Below, in pieces: positions 15,880 to 62,821 of a DNA stretch of 64,000 bases (position 1 is its first letter; every line of letters starts with the position of its first letter). The stretch is taken from positions 184,790 to 248,789 of the forward strand of contig CAYFHS010000002.1 of the NCBI GenBank assembly GCA_964342815.1, given 5' to 3'. Made by a program: the position numbers and the translations under genes. Under the pieces are notes generated by a model. It saw nothing but the letters and a program-made list of their open reading frames with translations. It was not told the DNA's origin and did no database searches. The DNA comes from an uncultured archaeon (GTDB lineage Archaea > Thermoplasmatota > Penumbrarchaeia > JASLWR01).

Positions 15880-15937
15880 TTTTCTACATAAAATTACACA
15901 ATAAAATAATTATACCAATTCCTTATTTCTTTTCCCC

Positions 15938-16351: not shown

Positions 16352-16375
16352 TTGGACCCGACGAGCTTTCCCTCA

Positions 16376-40899: not shown

Positions 40900-40905
40900 T
40901 TTTAT

Positions 40906-42237: not shown

Positions 42238-43265
42238 CTACCTCCGCAGGAATCCTCTTCGGTAATCCCCACCGTTTGGTGGGGTGGAGAAGAGGAAGCA
42301 GATTCCTGCGTTTTCGAGGATGAAACCCACAGATCATCTGTGGGTGATTCATCGCACCTGTTTATGATATAATGATCTATTTTTCCCTCATTTAGGAAAT
42401 ACCGACCATGCCCACTTTGTTCCGCAGAATCAGAGATACTGCTGCACCTTCGATTTCCCTTGGAAATCTGCTGGTCCAGTCGATTTTTTTCGTCAATCGC
42501 GAGAACAGTACCCCCCTCTTTTTTTGGGCTGCTTTTTCCAAAAAAGTAGTTTTGGGCCGCTTTTTTTTCTAAAAAAAGTGGTTTTTCACCATCAATGAAA
42601 AACGCAGCGAGAGACACCCTGAAATCATTTCCATCAACCGGAGCAAGAGCTTTGTAGACGCCAAGGGCGGCATCTCGGACATTTTTGAAGGGAAGTTCAC
42701 AAATCGGCGGTTCGCCTTCGAACGACGGGAGCGGATTTACATTATCTCCCGAATAGGTGGCGATCATTCGCCCGAAACCCGGGCGCATGGAAAATTCGAA
42801 ATTGTATTTTTCTCTGTAATCCTCCCCGCCCCGTTTTAAAATACCCAGGGCAAATTTGTTGGACTGAGGAGTAATAAAACCGCTTATTCTCGGTGTATAA
42901 TGGGGCGGGTCCGGCTCATAGCTCCACTGATCCAAACCTTTATCCAGCACTTCAAGCGGGCCCATTCCATCTTCGTATTTCTCCATGAGGGAAAGCGTAT
43001 GTTTTCCGTTAGAGACACCGATACCTCTTTTTATCGAAACTGCCGGGTAAATAAGAAGATCGGGATCACCTTTTCTCAATTCCTCTTCATCAGTGGGTTT
43101 CACCAGTAATTCGTTGTCACTGAATTCGAACTTTCTTGCCTGGCTCGCAGGAGATCGGCCCGTTATCGCATATATGACGACGGTGCGCGTATCCGATGCG
43201 TTCCTACCAACAATAATAATTCGGCCAGGGTATGTCATTTTTTCAATTTCTCTTAAGCTCGTCAT
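42234..43265 (-). CDS. IMP cyclohydrolase-like protein (PurO-like Ntn fold) carrying in-frame insertions near its 3' end
   Basis: YPGRIIIVG, ITGRSPASQAR, LLIYPAV, SNGKHT, YEPDPPHYTPRISG and NPLPSFEGEP motifs. The expected terminal VSL..F.D...G......IN(K/R) is split by ~64 extra residues and followed by ~36 more. Confidence 0.85.
   Translation of the reverse strand: MTSLREIEKMTYPGRIIIVGRNASDTRTVVIYAITGRSPASQARKFEFSDNELLVKPTDEEELRKGDPDLLIYPAVSIKRGIGVSNGKHTLSLMEKYEDGMGPLEVLDKGLDQWSYEPDPPHYTPRISGFITPQSNKFALGILKRGGEDYREKYNFEFSMRPGFGRMIATYSGDNVNPLPSFEGEPPICELPFKNVRDAALGVYKALAPVDGNDFRVSLAAFFIDGEKPLFLEKKAAQNYFFGKSSPKKEGGTVLAIDEKNRLDQQISKGNRRCSSISDSAEQSGHGRYFLNEGKIDHYIINRCDESPTDDLWVSSSKTQESASSSPPHQTVGITEEDSCGGR
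42245..42585. repeat. Cluster of at least five inverted repeats embedded in frame in the IMP-cyclohydrolase-like gene
   Basis: Hairpins at 42245-42310, 42319-42353 and 42452-42468, plus a tandem pair TTTTGGG-[stem-T5/8-loop-A6/7-stem] at 42522-42582. Confidence 0.8.
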
Positions 43266-44059
43266 ATCACCTCACTGAATTCGATGCCTTCGGGAATTAA
43301 ATTTCCGTCCAGATATATCCGGTCCTCCTCATCCCGGGTATATCTTCCTTCTGAGATCAATTCAATGGTTTTCGGAAAAATCTTCCAGTCACCTTCTTCT
43401 TTCAATCTTTCCTGAGTTTCCAACGCAACACTTTCAAACATTCCTAGCTCGTCACTGCCAACCAACAGATCTCTACCAATACCATCCGGCAGCACGGGCG
43501 CAACAGCATCGGACACCATGAGAATGGCGCCTCCATCCGGGATCTCCGTGACCAGATGAACAGTGCTGTGAACATATTTCTCACCGCTCAACAGGGCATT
43601 CATTACAGGTACATGTCCGATCCCGCCTGCGTATTTCCGCCCGCCGCTCCCATCCAGCGGCCGGAGGTCCGCCGGATGAACGTTCAAGGTCAGAAAATTC
43701 TTATGAATTTCCTCTGTTACGAACCAATTATAACCAGCCAGAGCAACAAGATCAATCTCATTATTACGGAATCCATCGGCAGCGAATCCATCAAACAGCA
43801 TTCGGGCGTCCTTCCCCTTTTTTCCACATTCCCGAAAGAATCTTTTTCGGTCGTTCACCATTGCGGGCAAGTCGTACTTTTTTCCAATTTTCTCGGTATT
43901 GCTCTCGGGATTTTCACTGAACAGCATACGCACTTCAAAGGATGGGATAGGGGCGGCTCTCGCATATTCTATTATCTTCACCGCATTGGTCCCGGAGCCG
44001 GACATCATTATTGCGACCCTCATAAGTCTTTCCCTTGGAGCGAACAGGGGGACATTCAT
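43262..44059 (-). CDS. purN: Phosphoribosylglycinamide formyltransferase (folate-dependent), divergent
   Basis: VAIMMSGSGTNA, DLVALAGY, LNVHPA (catalytic N/H) and STVHLVTEIPDGGAIL (catalytic D). Confidence 0.88.
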   Translation of the reverse strand: MNVPLFAPRERLMRVAIMMSGSGTNAVKIIEYARAAPIPSFEVRMLFSENPESNTEKIGKKYDLPAMVNDRKRFFRECGKKGKDARMLFDGFAADGFRNNEIDLVALAGYNWFVTEEIHKNFLTLNVHPADLRPLDGSGGRKYAGGIGHVPVMNALLSGEKYVHSTVHLVTEIPDGGAILMVSDAVAPVLPDGIGRDLLVGSDELGMFESVALETQERLKEEGDWKIFPKTIELISEGRYTRDEEDRIYLDGNLIPEGIEFSEVI

Positions 44060-44072
44060 TATTACACCGGTT

Positions 44073-45443
44073 CTATTGAAATCCGCCTATGGTTTTTCGG
44101 TATCTCATACAGTTATTATCGTTATTGCGGTGATCCAGGAACGCCAACTTTCCAATATTTCTATAAGCTTTTTCCACGGCTTCCTCAAATACCGTACTGC
44201 TGCCAACAACGTGAAGTACACGCCCGCCCTTGGTAACAAGCCCTCTTTCAGGGTGCTCGTCCACACCGGAATAGAATACTGCGATCCCCCGCTCGATATT
44301 ATCCAATCCTTCGATCTTGTAACCCTCTCCGTACCTTCCCGGATATGGTTTGAACCATCCTCCGCTGGGGGACCTTGCCTTTCCGGCCATTGCAATTACG
44401 TCGACATAGAAATTCTTGTTCCATTTTTGTTTTACCCTATCGAGATTCCCTTCCCAGGTCGCCATGGCTATCTCGAAAAGGTCGGTCTGGAGTTTTCGGA
44501 GGATCACCTGGGCTTCCGGGTCGCCGTGCCGGACATTAATCTCGAAAACGCAGAGACCGCCGTGCTCATCAATGTTAAGCCCGAAATAGAGTACTCCCTT
44601 GTAATTCCACCCCAGTTTATTGTAAACCGCATTTACCGTGGGACTAACGATCTCTCTTATTATCCTGTTGGACAATCCCGGGGTAGCCAGATCATGGGGG
44701 CAGCAGCACCCGGTACCTCCCGTGTTCAAGTTTCCACCCAAGATCCTAATTGTGTCCGTATCAGTGGGGTCGCAGGCAGGTTTGTAATCCCGTGCGAACA
44801 TTCGTAACGGTAAAAAATGCTCGCCGTCCAGATAAGCAAAGAAAGATATCTCATTCCCGTATTTTCGTTCCTCAATGACGCAGATATCTCCGGATTTTCC
44901 GAATTTTTTCTTCACTATTAAAGTATCTACAGCGGCTTCGGCATCACTGACGTCATCGCATACGATGGCGCCCTTGCCTGCAGCCAGCCCATTCGCCTTG
45001 ACAACGACCTGATATCCTACATTACGGACATATCTTTTGGCGGCTTCAGCATCATGGAAAGCCCTGTATTCGGCCATGGGAACACCGGCAGCCGCCAGCA
45101 AGGTCTTGGTAAATACCCTGTCGTTTTCTATCTGAACATATTTTGCCCTCGGTCCCACAGTGGGCAGACCCGCCCTGTTCAGAACATCTACGAGCCCTTC
45201 GTCAAGTGGATTCTCACTGCCCACATCCACAAGCCCCACACCGTTCTCCAGGCAGAATTCCCTGACCGCCTTGAAATCCCTTATTGGAACCTGCTCTATA
45301 TATCCTCGCTGACCCTTGGTGGTATATTTCACACCCGGATTGCCTGGAGCGAAATATACCTTCTCCACATGTTTGCTCTCGATATATTTGTCGCAAAGAC
45401 AATGATCGCGTCCTCCGGAACCGTAAACCAGTACCTTTTCCAT
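44073..45443 (-). CDS. purD: Phosphoribosylamine--glycine ligase
   Basis: VLVYGSGGRDH, APGNPG, VKANGLAAGKG, NTGGTG, GVLYFGL, EINVRHGDPEAQ and TKGGRVL motifs. Confidence 0.96.
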   Translation of the reverse strand: MEKVLVYGSGGRDHCLCDKYIESKHVEKVYFAPGNPGVKYTTKGQRGYIEQVPIRDFKAVREFCLENGVGLVDVGSENPLDEGLVDVLNRAGLPTVGPRAKYVQIENDRVFTKTLLAAAGVPMAEYRAFHDAEAAKRYVRNVGYQVVVKANGLAAGKGAIVCDDVSDAEAAVDTLIVKKKFGKSGDICVIEERKYGNEISFFAYLDGEHFLPLRMFARDYKPACDPTDTDTIRILGGNLNTGGTGCCCPHDLATPGLSNRIIREIVSPTVNAVYNKLGWNYKGVLYFGLNIDEHGGLCVFEINVRHGDPEAQVILRKLQTDLFEIAMATWEGNLDRVKQKWNKNFYVDVIAMAGKARSPSGGWFKPYPGRYGEGYKIEGLDNIERGIAVFYSGVDEHPERGLVTKGGRVLHVVGSSTVFEEAVEKAYRNIGKLAFLDHRNNDNNCMRYRKTIGGFQ

Positions 45444-45444
45444 T

Positions 45445-46878
45445 TCAACTACCCCCTATATCAAGAATTCTTTTGGCGAACAATACGGCATTCCCCGGAT
45501 CGATGATCACAGCTAATGGCAATTTTGAGGGCATTCTGAGGCTTGAATGAACGTCGGCCATGTAAGCTTCATTATCACTGTAAGGATTGCATGATATCAC
45601 CGGGAAACGAGAATTACCAGCCACCACCGGACCAAGACCGTTGCTTCTACCGGCGGATGTTATTATGACCACCGGCTCAATGCTGTTGTCAAGTTTACGA
45701 ATATATTCCAATACTTTGTGGGTCTCCTTGTGTGCCGAGGCATAGAAGGGACCGACATACGGGATCTTGTTATCTTCCAATGACTTCGCGAATCTCTCAC
45801 AAAAACGCTGGTCCCGGGGGCTTGCAGCCATGAGCTGGACGCAGCCGCCGTATATGTACCCGCCGGCTCGAAGATTTTCCATGATCCTCTTTTTGGGGTT
45901 CTTTGCCAGGCTGAAATCGAATTTCCTGCCCACGAACCTCTCGTATAGTCGTATATATTTGAGTGAGGTCTCGATAACCTGGCGGTCATTCAGATCCGGC
46001 AGTTCATTTACCTTACCCCCACCTTTCTCAAGCAGGGCATCTCTAACAAACTGTTTGCTGAGCTCCTCGATCTTCAATTCACTCTCTTCTCTCAATAGAT
46101 GGGTGACACTTTCAAAGTTACCTGTTTTCATTTTGGCCCGGATCGCTGAGAATTTCCGTTTCCATTCTTCCCTCTCACAGAATCTGGAAGAGTCGGGAGT
46201 GTTCACCTCGTCTATCAGGTGCAGTTCTCCTACTTCATCGACGCCGAACTCGTATTTCGTATCTATCAGGATAAGCCCAAGCTCTTCAGCCTCTTTTGAG
46301 AACCGATTGAAGAGGGAAATCGATTTTTCCATTACTCTGCGGGCCATATCCTCTCCAAGCAACCGCACGGTGTCTTCGAAGCTAATGGGCAGATCATGAC
46401 CTTCTTCCGCCTTGGTGGTGGGTGTGTACATGGCTTCTTCCAGTGACTGGTATCTGATAAGATCCTCCCCGAGCTTAATTCCGCAGAATTCTCTTTCGCC
46501 CTTCTCGAAGGAATCGGCCATGCTTCCCCAGAGATATTTTCTTACTACGCACTCCACCCCTATGTTCTTCATTTTTTTCTGAACCATTATGTTCGCATCG
46601 GGTACGTCTATCACAGCAGTAGGGATAATATTGCGGGCTATCTTCATGTTATGCTCGCTTATTCCCGTTAGTACGGCTCCCTTGAAAGGTATGCATCTGG
46701 ACAGAATGAAATCGAAAGCTGAAATACGGTCAGTGGTCACAAGAACTGCCCTGTCCTCTTGAAAATAAATATCCCGTACCTTTCCCTTCTTTAGTTCCCC
46801 AAGTTCAGGGAGAAAGGCCGACTCTAGCACGTTTTCGAGATTCTCTTCTATCATCGTCTCATATTCAGTCCTTGTCAT
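45445..46878 (-). CDS. purC-purE: Fused SAICAR synthetase (PurC) + class II-type AIR carboxylase (PurE), PAICS-like architecture
   Basis: N-domain GKVRDIY, TDRISAFD, IPFKG, PTTKA, DTKYEFG, DEVNTPDSSRF and SKQFVRD; C-domain SAH and SAGRSNGLGPVVAGNSRFPVISC...DVHSSLRMPS. Confidence 0.92.
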   Translation of the reverse strand: MTRTEYETMIEENLENVLESAFLPELGELKKGKVRDIYFQEDRAVLVTTDRISAFDFILSRCIPFKGAVLTGISEHNMKIARNIIPTAVIDVPDANIMVQKKMKNIGVECVVRKYLWGSMADSFEKGEREFCGIKLGEDLIRYQSLEEAMYTPTTKAEEGHDLPISFEDTVRLLGEDMARRVMEKSISLFNRFSKEAEELGLILIDTKYEFGVDEVGELHLIDEVNTPDSSRFCEREEWKRKFSAIRAKMKTGNFESVTHLLREESELKIEELSKQFVRDALLEKGGGKVNELPDLNDRQVIETSLKYIRLYERFVGRKFDFSLAKNPKKRIMENLRAGGYIYGGCVQLMAASPRDQRFCERFAKSLEDNKIPYVGPFYASAHKETHKVLEYIRKLDNSIEPVVIITSAGRSNGLGPVVAGNSRFPVISCNPYSDNEAYMADVHSSLRMPSKLPLAVIIDPGNAVLFAKRILDIGGS

Positions 46879-47700
46879 CTATATCACCAGATTTTTTCTT
46901 GCATATTTTACAGCATTCCGAAAGATACCAACACCCATACCTTCCTCGGGCAATTTTTCCCGCTTTCTTTCATCTCTCAAGCGGGTCCAGAGCGGATGAT
47001 TCGTATAATGCAGATAACCCTCCGGATGAGGCATTAATCCGAAAATACGTCCAGAGGGATCGCACAGAGCAGCTATATCGTTGGGAGAGCCGTTGGGGTT
47101 GAAGGGATATTTCCCTTCCGCATTCGCGAGGTTCGGTCCTGCATATCGGGCAGCTACCAGATTCGTGTCTTCAAGCTCTCTTAAAGTTTCTTTCCCCGTG
47201 AAGAACATCCCTTCTCCATGACGGACCGGAAGCTCAATATGGTCGATCCCTCGGGTCCAGATGCACGGCGAAGCGTGGTTGATGTTCAAAGAAACCCACC
47301 TATCTTCGAATCGGCCGCGGGAATTGCGCATAAGAGTCACGCTTTGACTCGAATAATCCCCTTGGAGGCCGGGCAGCAAGCCAGATTTTACAAGCACCTG
47401 GAAACCGTTGCATATACCTATGATCAGCTTGCCATCCTTGACGAATTTTTGTACCTCGGCGTTCAGTTTAGTCCTTAATTTTAGTGCAAGCGCTTTTCCG
47501 GCTCCTAGAAAATCACCGTGGGCGAAACCGCCGGGAATTGACAATATATGATAATCGTCGAGACACTTTGTCCTGTCGATAAGCTCGTTTATATGCACCC
47601 TACGGGCGAGCGCTCCGGCAAGTTTGAAGGCGTACTCGGTTTCCAGCTCGCAGTTGATGCCAAAACCGGTCATAATAAGCGCTTTAGGCTTCATTTTCAA
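46879..47700 (-). CDS. purQ: FGAM synthase glutaminase subunit
   Basis: GFGINCELET, PGGFAHGD, GICNGFQVL, HGEG and GLMPHPE motifs. Confidence 0.97.
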   Translation of the reverse strand: MKMKPKALIMTGFGINCELETEYAFKLAGALARRVHINELIDRTKCLDDYHILSIPGGFAHGDFLGAGKALALKLRTKLNAEVQKFVKDGKLIIGICNGFQVLVKSGLLPGLQGDYSSQSVTLMRNSRGRFEDRWVSLNINHASPCIWTRGIDHIELPVRHGEGMFFTGKETLRELEDTNLVAARYAGPNLANAEGKYPFNPNGSPNDIAALCDPSGRIFGLMPHPEGYLHYTNHPLWTRLRDERKREKLPEEGMGVGIFRNAVKYARKNLVI

Positions 47701-50672
47701 TACCTCATTGGGGATTGCCAGGCCTCTTTTAGAACTGTTATATCGCTTCGAATTATTACATTCCCATCTATGCCGATGACCTTGAACTCCGAGGATTCTA
47801 ATACTTTCCCGATACAGGAATATCGAGCATCAGTTAATAATTCTTCAAATCTCCCGCGCAGGTGGGGAGCCACGGTGACCACTAACCTTGAGGCTGATTC
47901 CGAGAAAAGCACTCCATCATTTCTGCTAACTCCCGTGGTGGGTACACTTCGCAGATCCACCTCCATTCCAAGATCCCCGGCGAAGGCAGTTTGGGCCAAC
48001 GCCACTCCCAGGCCGCCTTTGTAGCACCCGTGCATGGAAGCCACCAGTCCCTCCTCAACTGCTTTGTTCAGACCAGTGTAGATGATCTTTGCCTTCTCGC
48101 CATCAACTTTTGGTACGTTATTACCCACCGCTCCCATCATGTCGAAATATTCCGACGCGCCCAATTCATCCCTTGTGATACCGACCACATAAACGATATC
48201 CCCCGCTTTCTTGACATCCATGGTCACGCATTTTCTAACATCCTCGATCTTGCCAACAGCAAGATATTGGACCATTGGAAGCCCCGATATCTTTTTACTT
48301 CTCCCTTCCCGATCTTTGATGAATCCGTCTATGGACATGCTGTCCTTACCGCTTATACAGGGGGTTCCGAAGGATACCGTATAATCGTACAAAGCCTGAT
48401 TCGCCCTCACCAGTTGAGCCAAGAGATCGGCATCGTTCAACGGAAGCGGCCAGTTGAAGTTATCGTTCAATATCATTCTATCGAGGGAACCCCCCACCGC
48501 GATTATCCGTCGTATCGCCTCGTCAATAGCCATGGCGCTCATGTGATAGGCGGATATCTTGCTGTAGTGAGGATTCAAGCCCGATGAGATTGCCAGTCCC
48601 TCCATGGAATCCAGAACGGGGCGTATGACGACAGAATCGCTCTCCACATCGCTCCTAGCGCCCACCAACGGTTTTATCACGGACCCACCCTGAACTTCGT
48701 GATCGAACTGCCTTATTATGTACTCCCTGCTGCATATGTTCGGTCGAGAAAGCATTTTTATGAGTACCCGGGTGTATTTTTTGTCCTCACCGAGCTTTGG
48801 TACTGGAAAAATATTTCTTTTCTCCTCGCGTGCGTTCAGCTCCATCTGAGGAACTCCTTCATGAAGAAACTCCATATCGAGGTAAACCACCGATTCTCCG
48901 CCGTACTTTACGTGGAAAGTCCCGCTGTCAACGAATTCTCCCAGTACGGTCACCTCCACGTCGTGCTTTCTTGCAAGTCTCTGAAAGAGAGATATTTTTT
49001 TGGGGGGAACCGCAAATGTCATTCTCTCCTGGGACTCGCTAACCAGTATTTCCCACGGGTTCAGATTTGGGTATTTCAGCGGTGCACGATCCAGATGGAG
49101 TACGCAGCCGCCCTTCTTGCCGCAGAAGCCGGCAGTTTCCCCCACCGAGGAGTTAAGTCCCCCGGCTCCGTTGTCCTGAACGAAGTTGTAGAGACCTTCA
49201 TCCCTGGCCTCGAGAAGCATATCCATCAACTTCTTCTGCATGTATGGATCGCCTATCTGAACGTGGCCGGCCGGCGTTGTGTCGTCAAACGGCCTCGATG
49301 AGGCAGTAGCCCCGTGTATGCCGTCTACTCCTATCCGACCGCCGGCCATTACGATCAGGTCTCCGGGCTCAACTCTCTTTTCCCAGCCGGGTTTCCCGTT
49401 TACCCGTGAAGGTATCATTCCCCCGGCAGCAACCAGAATTATACATTTACCCAGGTAGCTCTCGTCAAAAAAAACTCTCCCGTATGGTGTGGGAACGCCG
49501 TGCTTGTTGCCGCCGTCCTCGACCCCTTTTCGCACCCTTTCAAGAAGAACTCTCGGGTGCTGCGGAGGGCTTAGCCTGCCGTGAAAATCCTGCGGACCCA
49601 CCATGAATCCATAATAGCCGAAAACTATCTTTGCACCCATTCCGGTTCCCATGGGGTCTCGGTAAACACCCACGATCCCGGTGATTGCACCGCCATAGCC
49701 TTCCATGTTGGACGGACTGTTGTGGGTCTCGCATTTCAGGCAAAAAAGCCAGTCCTTGTTGAATTCCATTACACCTGCATTGTCCCAGAAGACGGATTTG
49801 ATCCATGGCCGCGTTTCCATGATTTTTTTGGTAGCTCCTTTGATGTAGGTATCGAATAGACTGTCGATGTCGCATCGCTCACCGTTTGCTCCTCTGAAGT
49901 GGATAATGGCGTTGAACTGCTTGTGTTTGCAGTGCTCGCTCCATGTCTGCGCCAAGGATTCCATCTCCGCATCAGTAGGTATTTTCTGGAGACCCACCCC
50001 CACCCGGCGCCGTGCAACACCTTCCCGATCATAGTATTCCACAATTGCCTGAAGCTCCTGCCTGCTCAAACCCCATTGGCTTGAATCGCTCAAGTTAAGA
50101 AGTTCTTCGGGCTCCGCAGCAAGATCGATATACTCAATGACGGGGGGATTGTTAATGGAAGCTCTCGCCAATGTATGGGGGACTCCCACATCGGACCAAT
50201 GCGAATAATTGCTGATATACCATCTCTGGACCAGCGGATTGGCAAGCAGGCGTGATGCAATCTTTTCTTGTTCAAAATCCGCCCCTTCTACTCCTTTTAT
50301 CCGGTACTGGATCGAACTGGATATTTTATCCTTGAGACCCAACGTAATACCTATATCACGAAAAGCCTCTTGGGCCACTCTTGCGGCATTATCGGTCAAA
50401 CCGGGTTTCCACCCGACTTCGATGAGCACGTCGAAGCCCTCTTTTGAGGGCAATTTCTCATAGCTTGACATCTCGGAGATGGGGTCTGTAAAAATAAGTT
50501 CCTTCAGTTTCGTCAATTTTTCGGGACTAAGATCCGCATCAATGGTGAATACTGAAACGACATTGACCGATTCCAGAGGAATGTCCAGCTCGTTTCGTAT
50601 CCTTTTTAAGATGCTGGCTCCCTCAGCGTTTATGAGGTCCGGTCTTGTGGAAATCTCCAGTCTGAATGCTAT
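47697..50672 (-). CDS. purL: FGAM synthase synthetase subunit with fused N-terminal tandem PurS-like domains; probable ATA start at 50672
   Basis: QTWSEHCKHK, DNAGV, ETHNSPS, DGIHGATASS, DNGAGGL, SESQERM, QFDHEVQG and GKDSM motifs. The frame stays open 52 codons upstream of the ORF-track TTG (50516) with PurS-like sequence, but contains no ATG, GTG or TTG. Confidence 0.93.
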   Translation of the reverse strand: MAFRLEISTRPDLINAEGASILKRIRNELDIPLESVNVVSVFTIDADLSPEKLTKLKELIFTDPISEMSSYEKLPSKEGFDVLIEVGWKPGLTDNAARVAQEAFRDIGITLGLKDKISSSIQYRIKGVEGADFEQEKIASRLLANPLVQRWYISNYSHWSDVGVPHTLARASINNPPVIEYIDLAAEPEELLNLSDSSQWGLSRQELQAIVEYYDREGVARRRVGVGLQKIPTDAEMESLAQTWSEHCKHKQFNAIIHFRGANGERCDIDSLFDTYIKGATKKIMETRPWIKSVFWDNAGVMEFNKDWLFCLKCETHNSPSNMEGYGGAITGIVGVYRDPMGTGMGAKIVFGYYGFMVGPQDFHGRLSPPQHPRVLLERVRKGVEDGGNKHGVPTPYGRVFFDESYLGKCIILVAAGGMIPSRVNGKPGWEKRVEPGDLIVMAGGRIGVDGIHGATASSRPFDDTTPAGHVQIGDPYMQKKLMDMLLEARDEGLYNFVQDNGAGGLNSSVGETAGFCGKKGGCVLHLDRAPLKYPNLNPWEILVSESQERMTFAVPPKKISLFQRLARKHDVEVTVLGEFVDSGTFHVKYGGESVVYLDMEFLHEGVPQMELNAREEKRNIFPVPKLGEDKKYTRVLIKMLSRPNICSREYIIRQFDHEVQGGSVIKPLVGARSDVESDSVVIRPVLDSMEGLAISSGLNPHYSKISAYHMSAMAIDEAIRRIIAVGGSLDRMILNDNFNWPLPLNDADLLAQLVRANQALYDYTVSFGTPCISGKDSMSIDGFIKDREGRSKKISGLPMVQYLAVGKIEDVRKCVTMDVKKAGDIVYVVGITRDELGASEYFDMMGAVGNNVPKVDGEKAKIIYTGLNKAVEEGLVASMHGCYKGGLGVALAQTAFAGDLGMEVDLRSVPTTGVSRNDGVLFSESASRLVVTVAPHLRGRFEELLTDARYSCIGKVLESSEFKVIGIDGNVIIRSDITVLKEAWQSPMRY

Positions 50673-50706
50673 TCGGCACCATCTCCTTTGTTAAATTCAA
50701 TTTTTT

Positions 50707-52527
50707 TCATTCCCATTCTATTGTTCCGGGTGGTTTACTGGTGACATCGATACAGAAACCGGATACAGCATCAAATCGGGATATTTCTTCATCAAGTTCT
50801 GAAATTAATTCTATTGGAACCAGAGCGGGAGCCGCTGTCATAGCTCGTTTGGAATGGACCGGACGAAGAATGACCAACTCGCGGCCCTTGCCGTCCATCT
50901 CCAGGGGAACCAGAACAGTGGGGCACTGCCATATCGATGAATAACAGCCATATTTAACAAGGGACTCCATTACCAGATGATCGATCTCTCTCAAAAGCCT
51001 CAAACGCTCTCGGGTTACAGTGGCCGGGAGGGGGACAGCCTTTGAGTGGGTCTGACCAGTCAAATTCCAAATGCATCTATTTATTCCGTTAAGCTCCGAG
51101 AGGATGACCGTGGCGGCTTTCACCACTTGATCCAGGGACTCATCGCCTTGAAGAAGGACGGGGTGCTCGTAAGAGCGAAGGTCCCCTTTCACTCCCACGG
51201 ATCTGATTGGCAGAATGAGCGAATTTAGGCCAAAACTCCCTGCAATTTCGGCCACCTTCTCGACGACTCCTTTCCGAATGTTTGTGTTGGGCGACCCTGT
51301 TGAGCAGAGAAGGCGTATCCCAAGTCCCGGACCGGGGAACGGATGGCGCCACAGTACATTTTTCTCAATACCCAATCTCTCACCCAGTTCCCTGACCTCG
51401 ACCTTGTAAAGTTCACTCAAAGGCTCCAATATTTTTCCCCGTTCCATCATTTCGTCGATTATCGGTACCCGGTTATGGTGGGTCTTTATGGTATCCGCCC
51501 GTTTGGTACCCCCGGTTTCAATGGTGTCGGGGTAGATGGTCCCCTGAGCCAGGATATGATCCTTGAGACCTAGCGCTTCGGCTTCTTGCTGGAATACCTC
51601 CAAAAAGGTATTTCCAATGGCAATACGTTTCTCTTCGGGCTCCACCAGACCCTCCAGAGCATTGAGAAAAAACGCTCCCGCATCAATAAAATGAAGGTTT
51701 TCATCCAATCCGAGATATTCAAACATTTCCAATACCGACCTGCTCTCGTTCTTTCTCATTAGACCGTTGTCGATATGAAGAAGATGGAATTGCCCGGTGG
51801 CCAGGGTCATTCCCAGCAGTTTGGCTGCCACGGTGGAGTCCACGCCACCCGAGACCAGAAGGAAGACGGACTTTTCCCCTGCTTTCTCACGGATATCTTC
51901 TATCTTTCTCTCCAGGTAGTCCTCCATGGTCCACGTGGGAGAACAACCGCAGATGCTAAAAACAAAATTGGAGAGCATTTTCTCACCATGAGGCGTATCG
52001 TCAACTTCCGGGTGGAACTGGAACCCGTAACGCATCAGACGTTTCGAGGCTATTGCGCTATAACGATGTTTTCTCCGGTCACTTCCACCAACAGTATACC
52101 CGATTTCCTCAAAATCGGGTCCAAGCTTAATCACCGAGTCGTGATGGCTCATCCAAACAGGTTCCGTTCGGTCCAATCCCTCGAACAAAGGATGTGATGA
52201 GCTAATGTGAAGGTCCGCTCGACCCCACTCTCGTTCTCCCTTGGCCACTCTTCCCCCGTAATGCTTGGCGATCTCCTGGTGACCGAAACAAAAACCGAGT
52301 ATTGGAATGTCCAGATCGAATATTTTTCGATCATAATGTGATTCCTCTCCCTTTGAGGAAAGGGCCGGGCTTCCGGAGATTATAATTCCTCTATAGGCGC
52401 GGAAGATATCAAGAGGATCCTCGGGTTGAAGTATCTCGGCCAATACGTGGAGCCGACGTATCTTTGTTGCGATAAGATGGGCATACTGCCCGCCGAAATC
52501 CACTACCGCGATAGCGTCGTGTTTCAT
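50707..52527 (-). CDS. guaA: GMP synthase (glutamine-hydrolysing), fused GATase + synthase
   Basis: VDFGGQYAHLI, GFCFGHQ, FQFHPEV, SGGVDST, QGTIYPDTIE, KTHHN, HPFPGPGLGIR and SKPPGTIEWE motifs. Confidence 0.98.
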   Translation of the reverse strand: MKHDAIAVVDFGGQYAHLIATKIRRLHVLAEILQPEDPLDIFRAYRGIIISGSPALSSKGEESHYDRKIFDLDIPILGFCFGHQEIAKHYGGRVAKGEREWGRADLHISSSHPLFEGLDRTEPVWMSHHDSVIKLGPDFEEIGYTVGGSDRRKHRYSAIASKRLMRYGFQFHPEVDDTPHGEKMLSNFVFSICGCSPTWTMEDYLERKIEDIREKAGEKSVFLLVSGGVDSTVAAKLLGMTLATGQFHLLHIDNGLMRKNESRSVLEMFEYLGLDENLHFIDAGAFFLNALEGLVEPEEKRIAIGNTFLEVFQQEAEALGLKDHILAQGTIYPDTIETGGTKRADTIKTHHNRVPIIDEMMERGKILEPLSELYKVEVRELGERLGIEKNVLWRHPFPGPGLGIRLLCSTGSPNTNIRKGVVEKVAEIAGSFGLNSLILPIRSVGVKGDLRSYEHPVLLQGDESLDQVVKAATVILSELNGINRCIWNLTGQTHSKAVPLPATVTRERLRLLREIDHLVMESLVKYGCYSSIWQCPTVLVPLEMDGKGRELVILRPVHSKRAMTAAPALVPIELISELDEEISRFDAVSGFCIDVTSKPPGTIEWE

Positions 52528-52557
52528 TGTATGCCCCTTACCGGCCTTAAAAGAAAT

Positions 52558-53721
52558 TTACTTTCCCATTCCGACCCTTTGAGTTTTCTGAAATATCTTA
52601 CCTTCCGAACCTATCTGGGGGGCAATCAGAAGCTCTGTAAGCTGCATCTGCTCAATGTTGATCGCCCCCACCGAACCCATGCTCGTTTTCAAGGCTCCAA
52701 CCAGATTGTGGGTGCCGTCATCCAAACGCGCCGGTCCATACAAAATCTCTTCCAGGGACCCCGTTGTGCCTACCCGTATCCTTGTTCCCCGGGGGAGATT
52801 TTTATGGGGTGTTGCCATCCCCCAGTGATATCCCTTTCCAGGTGCTTCCCTGGCTCTTGCGAAGGTCGATCCAAGCATCACGGCATCCGCACCTGCGGCG
52901 AAGGCCTTGCAGATGTCGCCACCTGTGCTCATTCCACCGTCCGTAATTATGGAAACATATTTCCCGGTTCGTTTGAAGTAATTATCCCTGGCTGCTGCAC
53001 AATCTATTGTTGCAGTCACCTGGGGAACCCCAATTCCAAGCACACCTCGTGTAGTACAAGACGCTCCGGGACCCACACCGACCAGCAGAGCTGCACACCC
53101 CGTTTCCATAAGTTCCAGGGCTGAATGATAGGTAACACAATTCCCGATAATCACCGGTATGTCCAATTCCCTGCACAGCTCACCCAGGTTGACCGGCTCG
53201 TACAGGGTGGAGATATGACGGGCAGTGGTCACCGTGGATTGGACAACGAGAACATCGGCTCCGGCCTCCTGGGCGATTTGTCCGTATCTCTTGGCTTTCT
53301 GGGGAATCGCTGAAACTGCCGTATAGGTCCCGTTTTTTTTCATCTCCCTCACCCGCTGGCCGATAAGGAAGTCTTTAATTGGTTCACGATAGACCTCTTG
53401 TATCTGATGGGTAACCGAGTCATTAGGTGCTTCGATTATTCTCATAAGTTCCGGGTATGGGTTCTCATATCGAGTGTATATACCCTCAAGATTTAGAACT
53501 CCAAGACCCCCCAATTTGCCAAAGGCACCGGCGAACTTCATGTCAACCACACCGTCCATAGCCGAGGCCAGGAATGGTATTTCCAGCATCAAACCATCGG
53601 CCAGCCGCCGAGTGATGTTCACTTCATCCGGATTGACGGTGACGGTCCCTGGAACCAGTGCCACTTCGTCAAATCCGTATGCTCGTCGCGCCTCGCGGTT
53701 TCTTCCTATGAATAAAGGCAT
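52558..53721 (-). CDS. guaB: IMP dehydrogenase-family protein, GuaB3 type (no CBS domains)
   Basis: [50 protein letters not shown] (catalytic Cys), DGGM and [16 protein letters not shown] motifs. Confidence 0.93.
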
Positions 53722-53991: not shown

Positions 53992-54402
53992 TCAGAAGTT
54001 TGTTCTGGTAATGACCAGTCCGCCGTGTTTGACACCCTTGATGGCAAGAATGTTATCCGCCAGTTTTTTCACCTCGCCCGCCATTCCGCGTACTATTAGA
54101 ACCTCAAGGCAGAGATGCTCGTCAAGGTGGATGTGTGTTGTTGATAGGATCTCTGTGACGTGATGATGCTGAAGGTGCATTAATCGATTGTTCACATCAC
54201 CTGAATGATGATCATAGATAATTGTTAGCGTACCGAAGACCGCCCCCTGCTCATCGGTTTCGATCTTTCTCTCTATAAGCGATTTCCGGACAAGGTCGCG
54301 TATGGCTTCCGATCGATTTGGATAGCCTTTGTTCTTGATAAGTTCATCGAATTTTATCAGGAGATCCGGTTCGAACGAGACACCGACCCTTTCAACAGTC
54401 AT
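53992..54402 (-). CDS. nikR: Nickel-responsive transcriptional regulator NikR
   Basis: RVGVSF RHH strand, GYPNRSEAIRDL, YDHH and HIHLDEHLCLEV Ni-site motifs. Start placed at ATG 54402. Confidence 0.97.
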   Translation of the reverse strand: MTVERVGVSFEPDLLIKFDELIKNKGYPNRSEAIRDLVRKSLIERKIETDEQGAVFGTLTIIYDHHSGDVNNRLMHLQHHHVTEILSTTHIHLDEHLCLEVLIVRGMAGEVKKLADNILAIKGVKHGGLVITRTNF

Positions 54403-54403
54403 G

Positions 54404-54510
54404 GTAGCACCTTTGCCACTCAATCGTGTTACTTTATTATAAATCTTGCTACGGAAAACGATTTATATCAAAAGGATGTTGCTATAACACTCTTTCGAAA
54501 AAAGTGCTAC
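54404..54510. promoter_or_regulatory. NikR operator half-sites over the divergent nikR / transporter promoters
   Basis: GTAGCAC(54404)-N15-GTGTTAC(54426)-N13-TTGCTAC(54446), and ATAACAC(54484)-N13-GTGCTAC(54504). The sites overlap TATA-like boxes or predicted start sites. Confidence 0.7.
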
Positions 54511-54522
54511 TTGGTGAAGTGA

Positions 54523-55233
54523 ATGACGTTATCATTCTCAATTCTGGCCGGCACCGCATTTCTTATAGGGTTAATCCACACTGTGCTTGGACCAGACCAC
54601 TATCTTCCCTTCATCGCGCTCTCAAGATCTAGGAACTGGAGCGTAAAGAAAACGCTCCTGATAACATTGGTCTGCGGAACCGGGCACGTGCTCAGCTCCA
54701 TCATCTTGGGTGCTATAGGCATTACATTCGGCATCGCGGTCACTCAACTGGAAAACATAGAGGCATACCGTGGGGAGATTGCCGCCTGGCTCCTCTTCGT
54801 CTTTGGTATAACCTATCTCATCTGGGGGATACATAGGGCTGTGAAAAACAAACCCCACAGACATATGCACAATCACGGTGACGGAACGGAACACGTTCAT
54901 GAACACACCCATAATGATAAACATACCCATATACATGAATCCGGGCGAAAAAAGCTAACACCCTGGATACTTTTCATAATATTCATTTTCGGACCATGCG
55001 AAGCGTTCATTCCGCTTCTGATGTTCCCTGCATTCGATGCAAACATTATGACCATGATCGCCATTACCCTAATTTTCAGTATCACCACTATTGCCACAAT
55101 GATGGCCATCGTGACCCTATCGTATTACGGACTATCCCGCCTGAAAAATCCTAGGATAGAGCGATTCGGGCACCCTACGGCTGGTGCGGTCCTAGTGCTA
55201 TGTGGGGCGGCCATACTTTTCATCGGCCTGTGA
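54523..55233 (+). CDS. NicO/UreH-like nickel/cobalt transporter with a His-rich loop
   Basis: 6 TM helices, HTVLGPDHYLPF, GHVLSS, His-rich HRHMHNHG...HVHEHTH loop and GPCE motifs; divergent from nikR. Confidence 0.88.
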   Translation: MTLSFSILAGTAFLIGLIHTVLGPDHYLPFIALSRSRNWSVKKTLLITLVCGTGHVLSSIILGAIGITFGIAVTQLENIEAYRGEIAAWLLFVFGITYLIWGIHRAVKNKPHRHMHNHGDGTEHVHEHTHNDKHTHIHESGRKKLTPWILFIIFIFGPCEAFIPLLMFPAFDANIMTMIAITLIFSITTIATMMAIVTLSYYGLSRLKNPRIERFGHPTAGAVLVLCGAAILFIGL

Positions 55234-55296
55234 ATCCCACCATCAGGCAATGACTTGTTGGCTGTGTTTGCCGCTTGAAGTAGGGAATGATCGACA

Positions 55297-56121
55297 ATGA
55301 ACGAGGTTGATTGGAACGAGATGTGGAAAGAATCCAGGCGTAATTCCACGTGGAGGAAGGTATTTGGAGATAATGATACGGTGGAATACTGGAACCGTCG
55401 TGCCGAGAGCTTCAACAGGAATGCCGGGGACAAAAGGGGTGAAATTACAGTAGATAAATTGGTAAAATTGTTCGGTATCCATGGGACTTCCACCGTGCTT
55501 GACATAGGTGCCGGCACCGGCAGGCTGGCCATACCTTTCGCTAGAGTTGCAAAAAGCGTAACTGCCGTGGAGCCCTCACGCGAAATGATGAAATTTCTGA
55601 AGATGAATGCTTGTACGGAAGGACTCGATAATATAAGCTATGTTCATAAGCGCTGGGGTGAAGTGGCTGCGGGGAAGGACATTAAAAAACACGATATTGT
55701 GATCGCGTGTCATTCGTTGAGCATGATGGAGATCGGGAGCGCCCTTGCAAAGATGAATGAACTGGCTGAAAGATACGCCTGCATATACGCTTTTAGCGGA
55801 AAGAGGGTTTGGGATTTCACCGATCTTTGGCCTAGGTTATATGGCGAAAAATTCGTTCCGGGACCCACCTACATTTACCTCGTCAATTTATTATATTCGA
55901 TGGGAATAAACGTAAATATAAAGCTTATCAAACGGGAAATGGAGAGACGATACAGGAACCTGGACGAGGCAATGGAAGAAACAAAAATTAAATTGGATAT
56001 AAAGGATGATAAAAAGGACGAAATCATAAAAAATTACCTGGCCGAGACGCTGCGGGAAGAGAACGGAGAACTTTTTCATGTTAAGGAATTCGAGGAGGTC
56101 ATGCTCTGGTGGGAAAAATGA
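55297..56121 (+). CDS. Class I SAM-dependent methyltransferase
   Basis: VLDIGAGTGRLAIP, VTAVEPS and HDIVIACHSL motifs. Confidence 0.9.
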   Translation: MNEVDWNEMWKESRRNSTWRKVFGDNDTVEYWNRRAESFNRNAGDKRGEITVDKLVKLFGIHGTSTVLDIGAGTGRLAIPFARVAKSVTAVEPSREMMKFLKMNACTEGLDNISYVHKRWGEVAAGKDIKKHDIVIACHSLSMMEIGSALAKMNELAERYACIYAFSGKRVWDFTDLWPRLYGEKFVPGPTYIYLVNLLYSMGINVNIKLIKREMERRYRNLDEAMEETKIKLDIKDDKKDEIIKNYLAETLREENGELFHVKEFEEVMLWWEK

Positions 56122-56990: not shown

Positions 56991-57077
56991 ACGAGGGAAA
57001 TTCACGGGCTTGGAAAACACGATAATAGTAATAAATACGAGAGGCCTTATACGCACGAAAATACAGGTGGAACTCAA

Positions 57078-58295
57078 ATGAGAGAGTACTATTCCGATCC
57101 CGTTTTCAAGAAGAGAATGCTTGAATATACCGAAGATTCCGTTTACCTCGTGGGGTTCGGAAAATATCTCGAGCAGAACCATTTTCAATCGTTCAAATCC
57201 GTCCGCCCCACCAGGCTTGACTGGATGCTGGATCACAACCTCGACGGTTTCACCAGCGTCTGGCAGAAGGGATCTTATCTGATCGTGCTGGACCTCGAAT
57301 ATTACAATCCCTTCGATTATTCGGAGGTGTTCAGGGATGAGGAAGGGGTATTTGGAAAAATGGAGGGTTTTTGCAGGGCCATGGAGGAAATACTGGGCGG
57401 TTACGGTATAGAGTATCTGAAACTTATGACGGGACAGGGATATCATTATGCAAGCAAGATCAGGGAGGGAACTCCTGCCTTCGAGCTTATCAAGAAGTAC
57501 GGGATATGTTCTCTGACCACCCACCAGCGGAACCCCGACGTTCCCCGGGACCATAACCTCATGCAGGATTCTGTGGGTAAATTAATGGAGTTCCTGTACC
57601 AGAAGGTCTTTGAGATATATGACGGCCACCTGAGGCCGAAAGACATTCGTCTCGACTCGGCAATGATGGTCCTTGACCTGGATCTATGGGCCGACCCTTT
57701 GTTCATGCGGGATGTAAGGTTGGCATTCTCCAGCCATCAGAAACACATTATGGAAAAATACATAAAGCGGATGGACTCGGACTGGTGCGCAAAGAATGTG
57801 GCCATCGGTTATTCTATCCCGTGTGAGGGTTTGTCCCTCGCTGAGAGGATAGATATACGGAGAAACAAGGCAAAGGTCACCCAGCTTGCAAAAGAAAGCG
57901 ACATGCATATTCCGGATGGGAGCGAGGGATGGGGGAGAATGTTCAATGACTACCTGAAAACGCCTCTGAAGGATTTCCATGATTCCTTCGATGCGGTTGA
58001 GATACTCGACGTCGGGCCACTGGAGCCAATTGATCTGCCGGGAAGCTGCCGTCATATTCTGGATGATTCCACAAAGGTGCGTTGGACCGAGATAAAAGCA
58101 GTGTGCGACCGTGCCTACCGCCTCGGCCGAGACCCAATGGAGGCGGCCCGTTTATTCTATGACCTGTTCACCTCACACAAGCAGTGGGGACTACACTGGG
58201 TGGAATACGACCCGGAGATGAGAGCAAAATACTGGGTTCGGATATTCTATGGCATGAACGAAACGCTGAAAGGTTATGTTCCCATGCCGGAATAG
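57078..58295 (+). CDS. Putative archaeo-eukaryotic primase (AEP) superfamily protein with a PriL/PriX-like C-terminal domain
   Basis: Motif I LIVLDLE, motif II MTGQGYH, motif III LDLDLWADPLFMRDVRLAFSSHQK; C-terminal LPGSCRHIL ... EYDPEMRAKYWV. Confidence 0.65.
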   Translation: MREYYSDPVFKKRMLEYTEDSVYLVGFGKYLEQNHFQSFKSVRPTRLDWMLDHNLDGFTSVWQKGSYLIVLDLEYYNPFDYSEVFRDEEGVFGKMEGFCRAMEEILGGYGIEYLKLMTGQGYHYASKIREGTPAFELIKKYGICSLTTHQRNPDVPRDHNLMQDSVGKLMEFLYQKVFEIYDGHLRPKDIRLDSAMMVLDLDLWADPLFMRDVRLAFSSHQKHIMEKYIKRMDSDWCAKNVAIGYSIPCEGLSLAERIDIRRNKAKVTQLAKESDMHIPDGSEGWGRMFNDYLKTPLKDFHDSFDAVEILDVGPLEPIDLPGSCRHILDDSTKVRWTEIKAVCDRAYRLGRDPMEAARLFYDLFTSHKQWGLHWVEYDPEMRAKYWVRIFYGMNETLKGYVPMPE

Positions 58296-60209: not shown

Positions 60210-62657
60210 TTAAAACTTCTTCCCGCATTTGGTGCAGAACTTTGCCCCCGGCTTCAGGGTATTTCCACACTTGTTACAAAAAGTTCTTTTCGGTTTTTGC
60301 GGCTTTTGAGACTTTTTCTCGGCATCGCCCACCTTTGTTCCGCATTTATTGCAGAACTTTGCCCCCGGCCTCAGCTTCTTTTTGCATTTGATGCATACCG
60401 GAGCCTTTTCTTTCTTCTTTCCCGCGACTGGGGTTCCGCATTTGGTACAGAATGTAGCCCCTGGCTTCAGGGGTTTCTTGCATTTCGCGCAGAGCTTCTT
60501 CGGAGGCTCGATTGTTTCTTTGGACACTTCCACCTTTTCCTCGATCTTCTCCGGTACCGGCGCAGGCTTCTTTTTCCCCTTAATTGCGGCCATGCTCTTT
60601 GATTTCTTCTCGAAGTATTCCAGAATATTGTCGGAAATGGTTTCCTTAAGAGCCTCTGCTTCCAGTGTCTCGTGCTGGGTCACGAGCCAGCGGACGTTCA
60701 TCTGCTGGGCCGTGTCGTAAACATCGGGGCACACCAGAATGAACTCGCCTGCCTTCAGCGTGGGCAGCCGGTTCAGAATACTGTCCGCTTCACCGGATGA
60801 TATGGATTTCAGCATTCCCGCCACCTTTTTCAGGTCCTGCGGGGTCATCATCCTTCCAAGGCCCCAGGTATTGGCCTGGGCCATGGCCTTGTAGTCCACG
60901 TCCGCCGCGTTCTGTGTGCACATCATGCAGGAAACACCGTATTTCCTTGCCTGCTTGAACAGCAGCTTCAGTATACCCTTTGCGGGAGGATTGAATGGAT
61001 GGGGTGGCAGGTAGGGGGCCACCTCGTCTATATAGAAAAGTGCCTGAACCTCTTTCGACGGGTGAGTGAGCATCCAGCTGTACAGCTCGTTGCCCACCAC
61101 GGCTATGAAGAACTGCTTGTGGGCTTCCGACGAGAGAGTATTGAGATAAATTATGTTCACGGTGGTCTTTCCCTCTTCCACGGGGGTGAACATTTCGTTC
61201 ATGTCCAGAGGGAATCCAAAGCTGAAAAGCAGTTTTTCTATTCCCATGGTAAGATGTCTGAGCTTTCGTGCAAGTTTCTCCCGTTCCTTCGACTTTATTA
61301 TGTCCGAGGAATCGTCGATATCCATGGTCTCCGGTTTATCCACGATATTGGCAAGGGTGCGGAAGTTCTCCACTTCAGTCCCGCTGCTCCATGCCATCTC
61401 AAGAACGTGATACAGGTAGGAAGCTGCGGCTTTCCCGGCATCGGAATCCGTCTTGTATCCCAGCAGTGATACTATGGAGTTGGAGACGGTGTCCAGGGCT
61501 TTTATGGCGTCCTCGGGAGAAAAATCCGCCGGAAGGGTCTTAAGGGGATTGATGCAAAGGGGAATTCCTCTTGATGAAGCCGGGGTGAATATCCTTACTT
61601 CGGCCTTTTCCCTGTATTCTTTAAGTATCTCCAGTGGAATGTTGTGCTTTTCGCATTCTTCCTCGCTGGATATGAGTATCAGAGATGCCAGATCTCCCTG
61701 GGGATCCATTATTATTGAGGGAATGCCGTTTCTCGTAGCCTCCTCCAGTATACATTTGCCGAATACTGTCTTTCCGGAACCTGAGGCGCCAAGGGCAACG
61801 AAATGTCTTTTCAATGTGTCCAGGGGAAGCTGGACGCTTTTATTACCCACTCGTCCCAGGAATATCTTGTCCGGTTCGGGTCCCTCGATCTCACCTTCTT
61901 CATCCTCCTCGCCCTCTTCTTCATCGTCATATTGCACAGAGTCATCTTCCTCGTCACTCTCACCTTCCTCGTCATCATACTCCACTTCTCCGTCTTCCTC
62001 TCCCTCGTCCCCTTCACCCTCCTCGTCATCATACTCCACTTCTCCGCTTTCCTCTTCCTCCTCACCCTCCTCGTCATCATACTCCACTCCCTCATCCTCC
62101 CCGTCCCCTTCACCGCCTTCGTCCTCATCATCCGGTGGAGGGGGCAGGTCTTCCTCTTCTTCCTCTTCTTCTTCGTCCTCATCATCCGTATCCTCCTCTT
62201 CCTCTCCACCATCGATGAGTCCGCCAAATGGATCGTCATCATACTCTTTTTCGTCTTCCTCTTCTTTATCTTCTTCTTCACTGCCTTCCTCTTCCTCCTC
62301 CTTTTCCTCTTCCCCGTCATCATCGTCTTCATCATCAAATCCCGCGAAAGGATCCTCGTCATCCTTCTCCTCCACTTCTTCGTCCTCCCTCTCTTCCTCT
62401 TCCCCATCATCCTCGAATCCTCCGAAAGGATCGTCGTCATATTCCGGTTCGTCATCAGACCCTTCGTCGTCTTCCCCCTCTTCCTCGTCATCAAGTCCAC
62501 CAAATGGATCGTCATCATATTCCGGTTCATCCCCGCCCTCTTCTTCGTCTTCCTCATATTCTATGAAAGGATCATCCTCATCATCATATTCGCTACCGAA
62601 ATTGATAAAGATTTCGTCAAGCTCAAGGTTCACGCGGTAATCGTTTATTTTTATCAT
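60210..62657 (-). CDS. HerA/FtsK-superfamily ATPase (DUF87-like) with a long acidic N-terminal region and three C-terminal Zn ribbons
   Basis: RHFVALGASGSGKT (Walker A), IMDPQGD, FYIDEV (Walker B), QARKYGV and CTQN; three CxKC...PGAxFCxKCG ribbons. Start placed at ATG 62657 after AAGGAG. Confidence 0.92.
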   Translation of the reverse strand: MIKINDYRVNLELDEIFINFGSEYDDEDDPFIEYEEDEEEGGDEPEYDDDPFGGLDDEEEGEDDEGSDDEPEYDDDPFGGFEDDGEEEEREDEEVEEKDDEDPFAGFDDEDDDDGEEEKEEEEEGSEEEDKEEEDEKEYDDDPFGGLIDGGEEEEDTDDEDEEEEEEEEDLPPPPDDEDEGGEGDGEDEGVEYDDEEGEEEEESGEVEYDDEEGEGDEGEEDGEVEYDDEEGESDEEDDSVQYDDEEEGEEDEEGEIEGPEPDKIFLGRVGNKSVQLPLDTLKRHFVALGASGSGKTVFGKCILEEATRNGIPSIIMDPQGDLASLILISSEEECEKHNIPLEILKEYREKAEVRIFTPASSRGIPLCINPLKTLPADFSPEDAIKALDTVSNSIVSLLGYKTDSDAGKAAASYLYHVLEMAWSSGTEVENFRTLANIVDKPETMDIDDSSDIIKSKEREKLARKLRHLTMGIEKLLFSFGFPLDMNEMFTPVEEGKTTVNIIYLNTLSSEAHKQFFIAVVGNELYSWMLTHPSKEVQALFYIDEVAPYLPPHPFNPPAKGILKLLFKQARKYGVSCMMCTQNAADVDYKAMAQANTWGLGRMMTPQDLKKVAGMLKSISSGEADSILNRLPTLKAGEFILVCPDVYDTAQQMNVRWLVTQHETLEAEALKETISDNILEYFEKKSKSMAAIKGKKKPAPVPEKIEEKVEVSKETIEPPKKLCAKCKKPLKPGATFCTKCGTPVAGKKKEKAPVCIKCKKKLRPGAKFCNKCGTKVGDAEKKSQKPQKPKRTFCNKCGNTLKPGAKFCTKCGKKF
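61880..62600 (-). repeat. Low-complexity Asp/Glu coding region with recurrent (Y)DDDPFGG and VEYDDEEG units
   Basis: Five DDPF/EDPF motifs and four V(E/Q)YDDEE motifs in the translated ORF. Confidence 0.9.
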
Positions 62658-62821
62658 GGATATACACTCCTTTGCATTTATCACGGGAAATATATTTCAT
62701 TCCACGGAGGTTTCTATAGGCTTTAGATTCCCCTTCTCTTCTCACAAACAGCGGGTTTTTATTTATTTATTTCTTTTCGATATAATATTTTAATATTAAA
62801 GGAAGTTATTTGGATATCTGC

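Follow-up and report, generated by a model that had tools for sequence, protein, structure and literature searches.

The AEP gene, its surroundings and its archaeal host

The window, i.e. the whole stretch of 64,000 nucleotides that was analysed, belongs to a Thermoplasmatota archaeon with a genome of 4.35 Mb (89% complete) and contains at 57078-58295 on the forward strand an intact open reading frame, which encodes a protein of 405 aa. This reading frame is a genuine gene; it is under purifying selection (compared with two orthologues, dN/dS is about 0.08 overall and does not exceed about 0.1 in the C-terminal domain), which indicates that the gene is maintained, and its GC content and codon use are ordinary for the host genome. 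The catalytic motifs that an initial annotation had read in the protein are located where it had placed them, and its numbering of D72 and E74 is correct. The features of the locus are as follows.

57065..57071, + strand: Shine-Dalgarno-like AGGTGGA, 6 nt 5' of the ATG; read in the sequence, putatively functional
57078..58295, + strand: gene for a single-chain AEP (primase-polymerase superfamily); 405 aa, model pLDDT 94.9, dN/dS ~0.08
57078..57992, + strand: AEP catalytic domain, residues 1 to ~305; VIA-align matches to Prim-PolC, LigD-Pol and PriS
57279..57299, + strand: motif I (hhhDhE) with predicted metal ligands D72 and E74; D in 245 and E/D in 244 of 250 family sequences
57429..57446, + strand: motif II (T118-H123), predicted nucleotide binding; G121 conserved in 248 and H123 in 232 of 250 family sequences
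57675..57743, + strand: motif III (D200) and motif IV region (R211, R214, H220, K222); conservation determined with n=250
58023..58265, + strand: helical C-terminal domain, residues ~316-396; PriL-CTD homologue by profile comparison, without the four Fe-S-type cysteines and without the Cys tail of the family

A scan with a sigma-70 promoter model, which is ill-suited to an archaeon, gave only chance levels. The protein ends in a degenerate PIP-box-like tail (residues 394-401), which is conserved in the host clade; a loose pattern of this type terminates 25 of 1521 long open reading frames.

The gene is preceded by genes for a methyltransferase and an alpha/beta hydrolase and followed by genes for a TPR protein and a second methyltransferase. 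The absence of an adjacent helicase or mobile-element gene, as noted initially, has to be qualified insofar as a HerA/DUF87-type ATPase is encoded 1.9 kb downstream on the opposite strand (60210-62684, reverse); this gene, however, does not recur as a neighbour across the family. In the ATPase, the N-terminal part of about 270 aa is very acidic and of low complexity, and the C-terminal part contains three zinc ribbons; a gene of similar size is located at the position of the ATPase gene in a genome of the same genus. Elsewhere in the window, a NikR-like regulator is encoded divergently from a His-rich membrane protein, a probable nickel transporter (53992-56121), at the place of which close relatives carry a Cbi-type ECF transporter set. 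The reverse strand contains a long purine-biosynthesis cluster at 39460-53721 (guaB-, guaA-, purL-, purQ-, purD-, purN- and purF-like by sequence motifs) and, at 10336-26913, genes for large surface or secreted proteins, which include one of 2662 aa that contains a zinc ribbon and numerous PKD domains as well as two of 1497 aa and 852 aa without a Pfam match.

Canonical priS and four-cysteine priL genes are present in the host on contigs other than that of the AEP gene. Each of the four genomes of the host family carries one copy of the AEP gene, and a fifth genome of the class, G005, has it on a 3.5-kb contig. The phyletic profile reveals the AEP gene in 5 of 401 Thermoplasmatota genomes, with no copy found in the other 396, versus PriS in 36 of 36 genomes sampled; canonical priS and priL occur in nearly all Thermoplasmatota sampled. 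The flanking genes are the same within the host genus and different in another genus. A search of the five archaeal carriers revealed no LigD-Pol, and neither the host nor its same-genus relative yielded PolX, all of these being incomplete genomes. In a further locus (L001:2-1220, G000:C48), the genes after priS, which have its orientation, resemble by motif those for ubiquitin-conjugating E2 and JAB/MPN proteins.

Fold, catalytic residues and C-terminal domain

AEPs are defined by motifs I (hhhDhD/E), II (sxH) and III (hD/E) (PMC5862659). All three motifs are present in the 405-aa protein, and its predicted model displays the derived RRM-like palm fold. D200 of motif III is found in 250 of 250 family sequences and is followed by D206-P207, R211 (244/250), R214 (242/250), S218, H220 and K222 (236/250). 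Since the motifs are near-invariant across the 250 family sequences, they do not reflect a chance resemblance. The spacing after D200 resembles the 'HRH' signature described for archaeal PriS (PMC5862659), which suggests that the motif IV region is 'HRH'-like.

An AlphaFold2 model based on 122 aligned sequences reached a pLDDT of 94.9 and a pTM of 0.93. The model superposes on AEPs, and the acidic residues sit on its strands 66-76, 121-129 and 196-200. In a VIA-align search of 48,161 chains, ranks 1-21 were all AEP or AEP-like entries, with Prim-PolC at the top (6sa0; Z 17.0, rmsd 3.6, 253 residues aligned). The LigD polymerase domains reached Z values of 16.2 (2fao), 15.8 and 15.4, PriS reached 12.2 and 11.9 (the latter for 1v33), and CAPP 11.8. 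Foldseek agreed with this order (best E 0.003), and an Atlas fold search placed three clusters of unnamed bacterial 'hypothetical proteins' nearest (TM 0.91-0.93), followed by LigD_Prim-Pol clusters at a TM of about 0.5. The predicted fold is thus that of an AEP. The 'PriS-type' core of the initial annotation has to be revised, because the protein is structurally closer to Prim-PolC and LigD-Pol (Z 15-17) than to PriS (Z ~12). The hhalign comparison with the PriS profile was weak (3.8%, E 0.011), with motifs I and II in register. The protein has no match to PF01896 (PriS), and PF21686 (LigD_Prim-Pol) matched neither the protein nor anything in the five carrier archaeal genomes. Searches with the protein and the family profiles against Pfam, NCBIfam, PHROGs, PADLOC and the PDB sequences returned nothing significant. 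Judged by its motifs and its modelled fold, the protein belongs to the AEP superfamily and is an AEP near the AEP-proper clade, which is neither PriS nor LigD-Pol.

The C-terminal domain is a homologue of the PriL-CTD. In a profile comparison by hhalign, the family domain matched the Thermoplasmatota PriL-CTD with a probability of 92.3% (E 5.6e-7) and with all four family cysteines in register with the PriL 4Fe-4S ligands, while 30 reversed or shuffled controls reached at most 1.8%. This supports the earlier proposal of a single chain composed of an AEP and a PriL-like helical domain; the PriL half of the proposed PriL/PriX likeness holds, whereas no specific match to PriX was found in the fold searches. 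PF04104 and PF18689 have no match in the protein, and among the Atlas feature neighbours one cluster carries PF18689 on 14% of its members. The isolated domain folds well in prediction; among structures it is most similar to 6di2, the Fe-S domain of eukaryotic PriL (Z 5.9), and next to photolyases, which are known relatives of the PriL-CTD (PMC2852410), with Z values within the noise for helical domains and tied with unrelated folds. PriX was not listed in three fold searches with the isolated domain, all with weak Z values.

The four cysteines, i.e. an LPPC-type cysteine at the start of the domain and a tail of three, are present in 178 of the 250 family sequences, and the four-cysteine bacterial members probably bind a metal cluster. 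A further 60 sequences, some of them cut by contig ends, have neither the LPPC-type cysteine nor the tail. All four are absent from the 405-aa protein and from the host clade in the alignments, in agreement with the initial statement that too few cysteines are left for a 4Fe-4S cluster, and the proteins of this clade end about 10 residues past the last helix; branches other than the host clade lack the four cysteines as well. C324 of the LPGSC stretch, initially taken for the signature cysteine, is not the conserved one, which aligns with S323; C324 is a cysteine in 4 of 11 host-clade members.

The family and its TIM-barrel partner

The protein has eight close homologues (66-87% identity). The family as a whole is defined by these and by 239 clusters at 50% identity, is mostly 430-490 aa long with 25-35% identity over the full length, and all of its named members are annotated as 'hypothetical protein'. 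The 80 loci include PVC-group bacteria, Auribacterota, Elusimicrobiota, Hydrogenedentota, Lindowbacteria, Clostridia and Methylacidiphilaceae as well as Thermoplasmatota and one Nanoarchaeota MAG; the family also occurs in Omnitrophota and is patchy in Verrucomicrobiota (9 of 251 genomes). It is mostly bacterial, chromosomal and unnamed. No member was found in IMG/VR viral contigs or in phage and plasmid collections, and PHROG and PADLOC have no match for it; the chromosomal location suggested before is hence borne out, and the idea of a domesticated mobile replicase is not. The literature searched, in which subscription journals are largely missing, holds no description of the family, so that the suspicion of an undescribed AEP family is apparently correct.

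The host clade is monophyletic with full support and sits on a long stem branch among mostly bacterial sequences. The archaeal clade was probably acquired from bacteria, although the tree is unrooted and does not resolve the donor. Free trees suggested separate acquisitions for the host family and G005; since a single clade was compatible with the data in the AU test (p 0.6), we do not claim these. The archaeal clade represents the form of the family that has neither the cysteines nor the partner described below.

Several variants were observed within the family. One member (P0047) has N-terminal CBS domains, and a search for longer fused forms of 892-2545 aa returned none, which is weak evidence. 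Tandem paralogue pairs, both with intact catalytic motifs, occur in 25 of the loci L056-L135 (e.g. L059, L061, L068, L100 and L121) and in L021. The pair-carrying loci belong to Auribacterota/PVC and Elusimicrobiota, i.e. to related genomes that are not independent; the TIM-barrel partner is absent from all of them, and the pair-carrying genomes tested yielded no partner-grade gene. The second copy has no cysteines in L121, L122 and L131-L133. In a divergent Cys-less subfamily of about 440 aa (L152-L155 and L158-L161 in G496, G517, G571 and G574), a genome can hold as many as three copies, some of them paired convergently, and no partner gene lies beside them.

The recurring neighbours of the family are housekeeping genes (hisS-aspS, panBC, dehydrogenase subunits); among those tested in more than 80 loci there was no helicase and no integrase, and an ATP-dependent ligase was likewise absent. 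Only an AP_endonuc_2 TIM barrel recurs as a partner across distant branches. Its gene is located directly downstream in 20 of the 66 loci with enough flank, beside the family gene in four of four further divergent members checked, often overlapping, and downstream also in the Verrucomicrobiota loci L192-L194. The barrel is fused to the AEP in P0067 and P0082, which fall in different subclades, and in five more carriers, four of which are titled Elusimicrobiota, its gene lies at a separate place in the genome. About half of the carrier genomes tested have no partner-grade gene, true partners scoring 200-390 bits. None was found in the host family, whose best matches are generic MJ1311-like genes of 103-115 bits.

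The partner has nine invariant His/Glu/Asp residues spaced like the trimetal site of EndoIV, the ligands of which we take to be those of E. coli Nfo. Among solved structures, MJ1311, which is counted among the Nfo homologues (PMC2770678), is closest to the partner (E 1e-42). The partner stays below the NCBIfam cut-off for Nfo and scores better on the CbiR and sugar-epimerase models. The P. furiosus Nfo homologue PF1383 has no AP-endonuclease and no DNA-binding activity (PMC2770678). PolX, an NAD-dependent ligase and an Fpg/H2TH glycosylase are also encoded in the Omnitrophota locus L200. LigD-Pol (100%) and AP_endonuc_2 (98%) domains are combined in an Atlas cluster of 172 Actinomycetota proteins with a length of about 597 aa, a pairing parallel to that of AEP and TIM barrel in the family.

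Proposed function and comparison with known systems

Fold, conservation and gene context suggest that the protein is catalytically active, uses DNA as substrate and takes part in repair, which is also the role that the initial annotation had considered. The likeliest function, to which we assign a probability of roughly 0.55, would be that of a gap-filling or end-extending repair polymerase, with host enzymes doing the rest. The modelled fold is closest to Prim-PolC and LigD-Pol. Prim-PolC fills gaps of 1-3 nt once EndoIV has cleared the 3' end, and the mycobacterial route of Fpg, EndoIV, Prim-PolC and LigC offers a model for end cleaning followed by gap filling (PMC5663958). The protein would be a two-metal nucleotidyltransferase, in which D72, E74 and D200 bind the catalytic metals and H123, R214, H220 and K222 hold the incoming (d)NTP. 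It would extend the 3'-OH of a short gap or of a damaged end by one or a few nucleotides, with the PriL-CTD-like domain gripping the template or the downstream duplex. In many bacteria, the EndoIV-type trimetal phosphoesterase would first cut the abasic site or remove a 3' block. Because the host family has neither the cysteines nor the partner, the Thermoplasmatota enzyme would contribute the polymerase step only and rely on end-cleaning enzymes and a ligase of the host.

Several points count against the repair reading. The partner is not beside the archaeal gene, it scores below the Nfo cut-off and better on the CbiR and sugar-epimerase models, PF1383 lacks AP-endonuclease and DNA-binding activity, and about half of the carrier genomes tested have no partner-grade gene; as the best TIM-barrel matches of the host family are generic, the link to repair reaches the protein only via the family. 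Furthermore, a PriL-CTD-like domain usually serves primer initiation, and to our knowledge neither Prim-PolC nor LigD-Pol has such a domain. Two related roles were ruled out: NHEJ, as Ku exceeded the cut-off in 0 of 32 carriers tested, and replacement of DnaG, as all 28 bacterial carriers tested encode DnaG. The latter, together with PriS and PriL in the host, argues against a replicative role altogether.

The architecture of AEP and PriL-CTD homologue would also suit a de novo primase for repriming behind lesions or stalled forks, with the C-terminal domain as a PriX-like initiating-nucleotide site without Fe-S, but we consider this unlikely. The Fe-S cluster is dispensable for priming, and PriX, which is structurally related to the PriL-CTD, holds the initiating NTP and primes without a cluster by means of R72 (PMC5700102). 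R335 lies where the central helix (336-348) begins and does not vary within the host clade, nor do D330, K340, R382, K384, Y385 and R388, and the C-terminal domain is under the purifying selection described above. However, position 335 is K in 102, Q in 31 and R in 25 other family members, in an uncertain register, and no arginine is conserved family-wide at the place of the PriL initiation arginine (human R306, PriX R72), where the profile alignment has no match. No PriX structure is among the fold matches either, and the host has its own PriS and PriL.

Somewhat more doubtful is a function off DNA, i.e. healing of RNA or tRNA ends, or synthesis of a small nucleotide that the trimetal TIM barrel would hydrolyse, as a synthase/hydrolase pair in stress or dormancy. 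The partner is nearer to the phosphodiesterase CbiR than to Nfo in NCBIfam, and PF1383 illustrates that Nfo-like barrels need not act on DNA; stress-type neighbours (USP, CBS, dodecin, baeRF release-factor-like and ChaB) are present in some loci and hisS in 12. The link to hisS, however, is found in a few related lineages only and could reflect simple synteny, and genes of DNA repair are neighbours in L200. Moreover, every one of the closest folds is that of a template-dependent nucleic-acid polymerase, and the PriL-CTD-like domain implies nucleic-acid binding.

A domesticated or cryptic plasmid or virus replicase similar to the PolpTN2 or PrimPol-PV1 families is very improbable and, for present-day members, largely refuted by the lack of any viral, phage or plasmid member or PHROG/PADLOC match. 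The patchy distribution in Thermoplasmatota and Verrucomicrobiota, the AEP plus PriCT/PriL-like architecture typical of mobile elements (PMC5862659) and the viral PriX/PriCT clusters among the Atlas feature neighbours would fit such an origin, but the recurring neighbours are housekeeping genes without helicase or integrase, and GC content and codon use are those of the host. Least probable of all is a replacement or back-up replicative primase, for which the same two-domain single-chain layout of the fused PriS-PriL of Nanoarchaeota (PMC10250227) and a Woesearchaeota PF01896 cluster among the Atlas feature neighbours would speak, but against which stand canonical priS/priL in the host and nearly all Thermoplasmatota sampled, DnaG in all bacterial carriers tested and a gene not found in 396 of the 401 genomes of the phylum.

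In the current view, a bacterial AEP is either a repair enzyme of the LigD type or a passenger of a mobile element (PMC5862659). The family, for which Pfam, NCBIfam, PHROG and PADLOC have no model, fits neither class, being chromosomal, equipped with a PriL-CTD-like domain and present in Ku-less genomes. Its joining of a LigD-type core to a PriL-type domain bears on the assembly of the archaeal and eukaryotic primase, and members that have the four cysteines can be paired naturally with members that lack them to ask whether the Fe-S cluster has a catalytic, regulatory or structural role. Among the well-conserved versions in the family sample, the archaeal protein is the most compact, and it needs no cluster reconstitution, which makes it a convenient member to assay. 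It is conceivable, though rather improbable, that the family, with its repair-type core, PriL-type 4Fe-4S domain and EndoIV-like partner, provides many uncultured bacterial phyla with a repair or repriming system so far overlooked, of which the archaeal version still primes de novo without cluster and partner; this version would then represent a PriX-like solution found in nature within one chain and would allow the purpose of the primase Fe-S cluster to be tested directly.

In comparison with known systems, the bacterial members of the same family are the nearest, with 25-35% identity to the archaeal protein over the full length; the latter differs by its size (405 aa vs 440-490), its missing Cys tail, its long stem branch and the lack of an adjacent or partner-grade TIM-barrel gene. 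PolpTN2, PrimPol-PV1, CAPP (Z 11.8 to the 405-aa protein) and the DRT7/UG10 primase domains have, as the family does, an AEP followed by a PriL-CTD/PriCT-like helical domain (PMC5862659; bioRxiv 10.64898/2026.02.16.706125). In contrast to these, the family is located off mobile elements and, in the loci examined, not beside CRISPR or reverse-transcriptase genes, and no helicase, winged-helix, TPR or RT fusion was found, its fusions being AP_endonuc_2 and, once, CBS. With PriS-PriL, the protein has the AEP core (Z ~12) and a PriS-like residue spacing in motifs III/IV in common, and its C-terminal domain is homologous to that of PriL, all four Fe-S-ligand cysteines being aligned in most bacterial members. 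Unlike PriS-PriL, the fused primase of Nanoarchaeum equitans and PriX, it has no PF01896, PF04104 or PF18689 match; its distribution is non-replicative, it has neither the four cysteines nor a structural match to PriX, and the initiation arginine of PriL and PriX is not evidently conserved in the family. From mycobacterial Prim-PolC (6sa0, 5op0) and LigD-Pol (2fao, 5dmu, 2iru), the family differs by an identity of about 11-12%, the lack of a LigD_Prim-Pol Pfam match, the extra PriL-CTD-like domain and carrier genomes without Ku. These enzymes are nevertheless the best structural matches (Z 15-17), have the three catalytic motifs in common with the protein and are chromosomal as well, and base excision repair employs Prim-PolC downstream of EndoIV (PMC5663958), a parallel to the TIM-barrel partner of the family.
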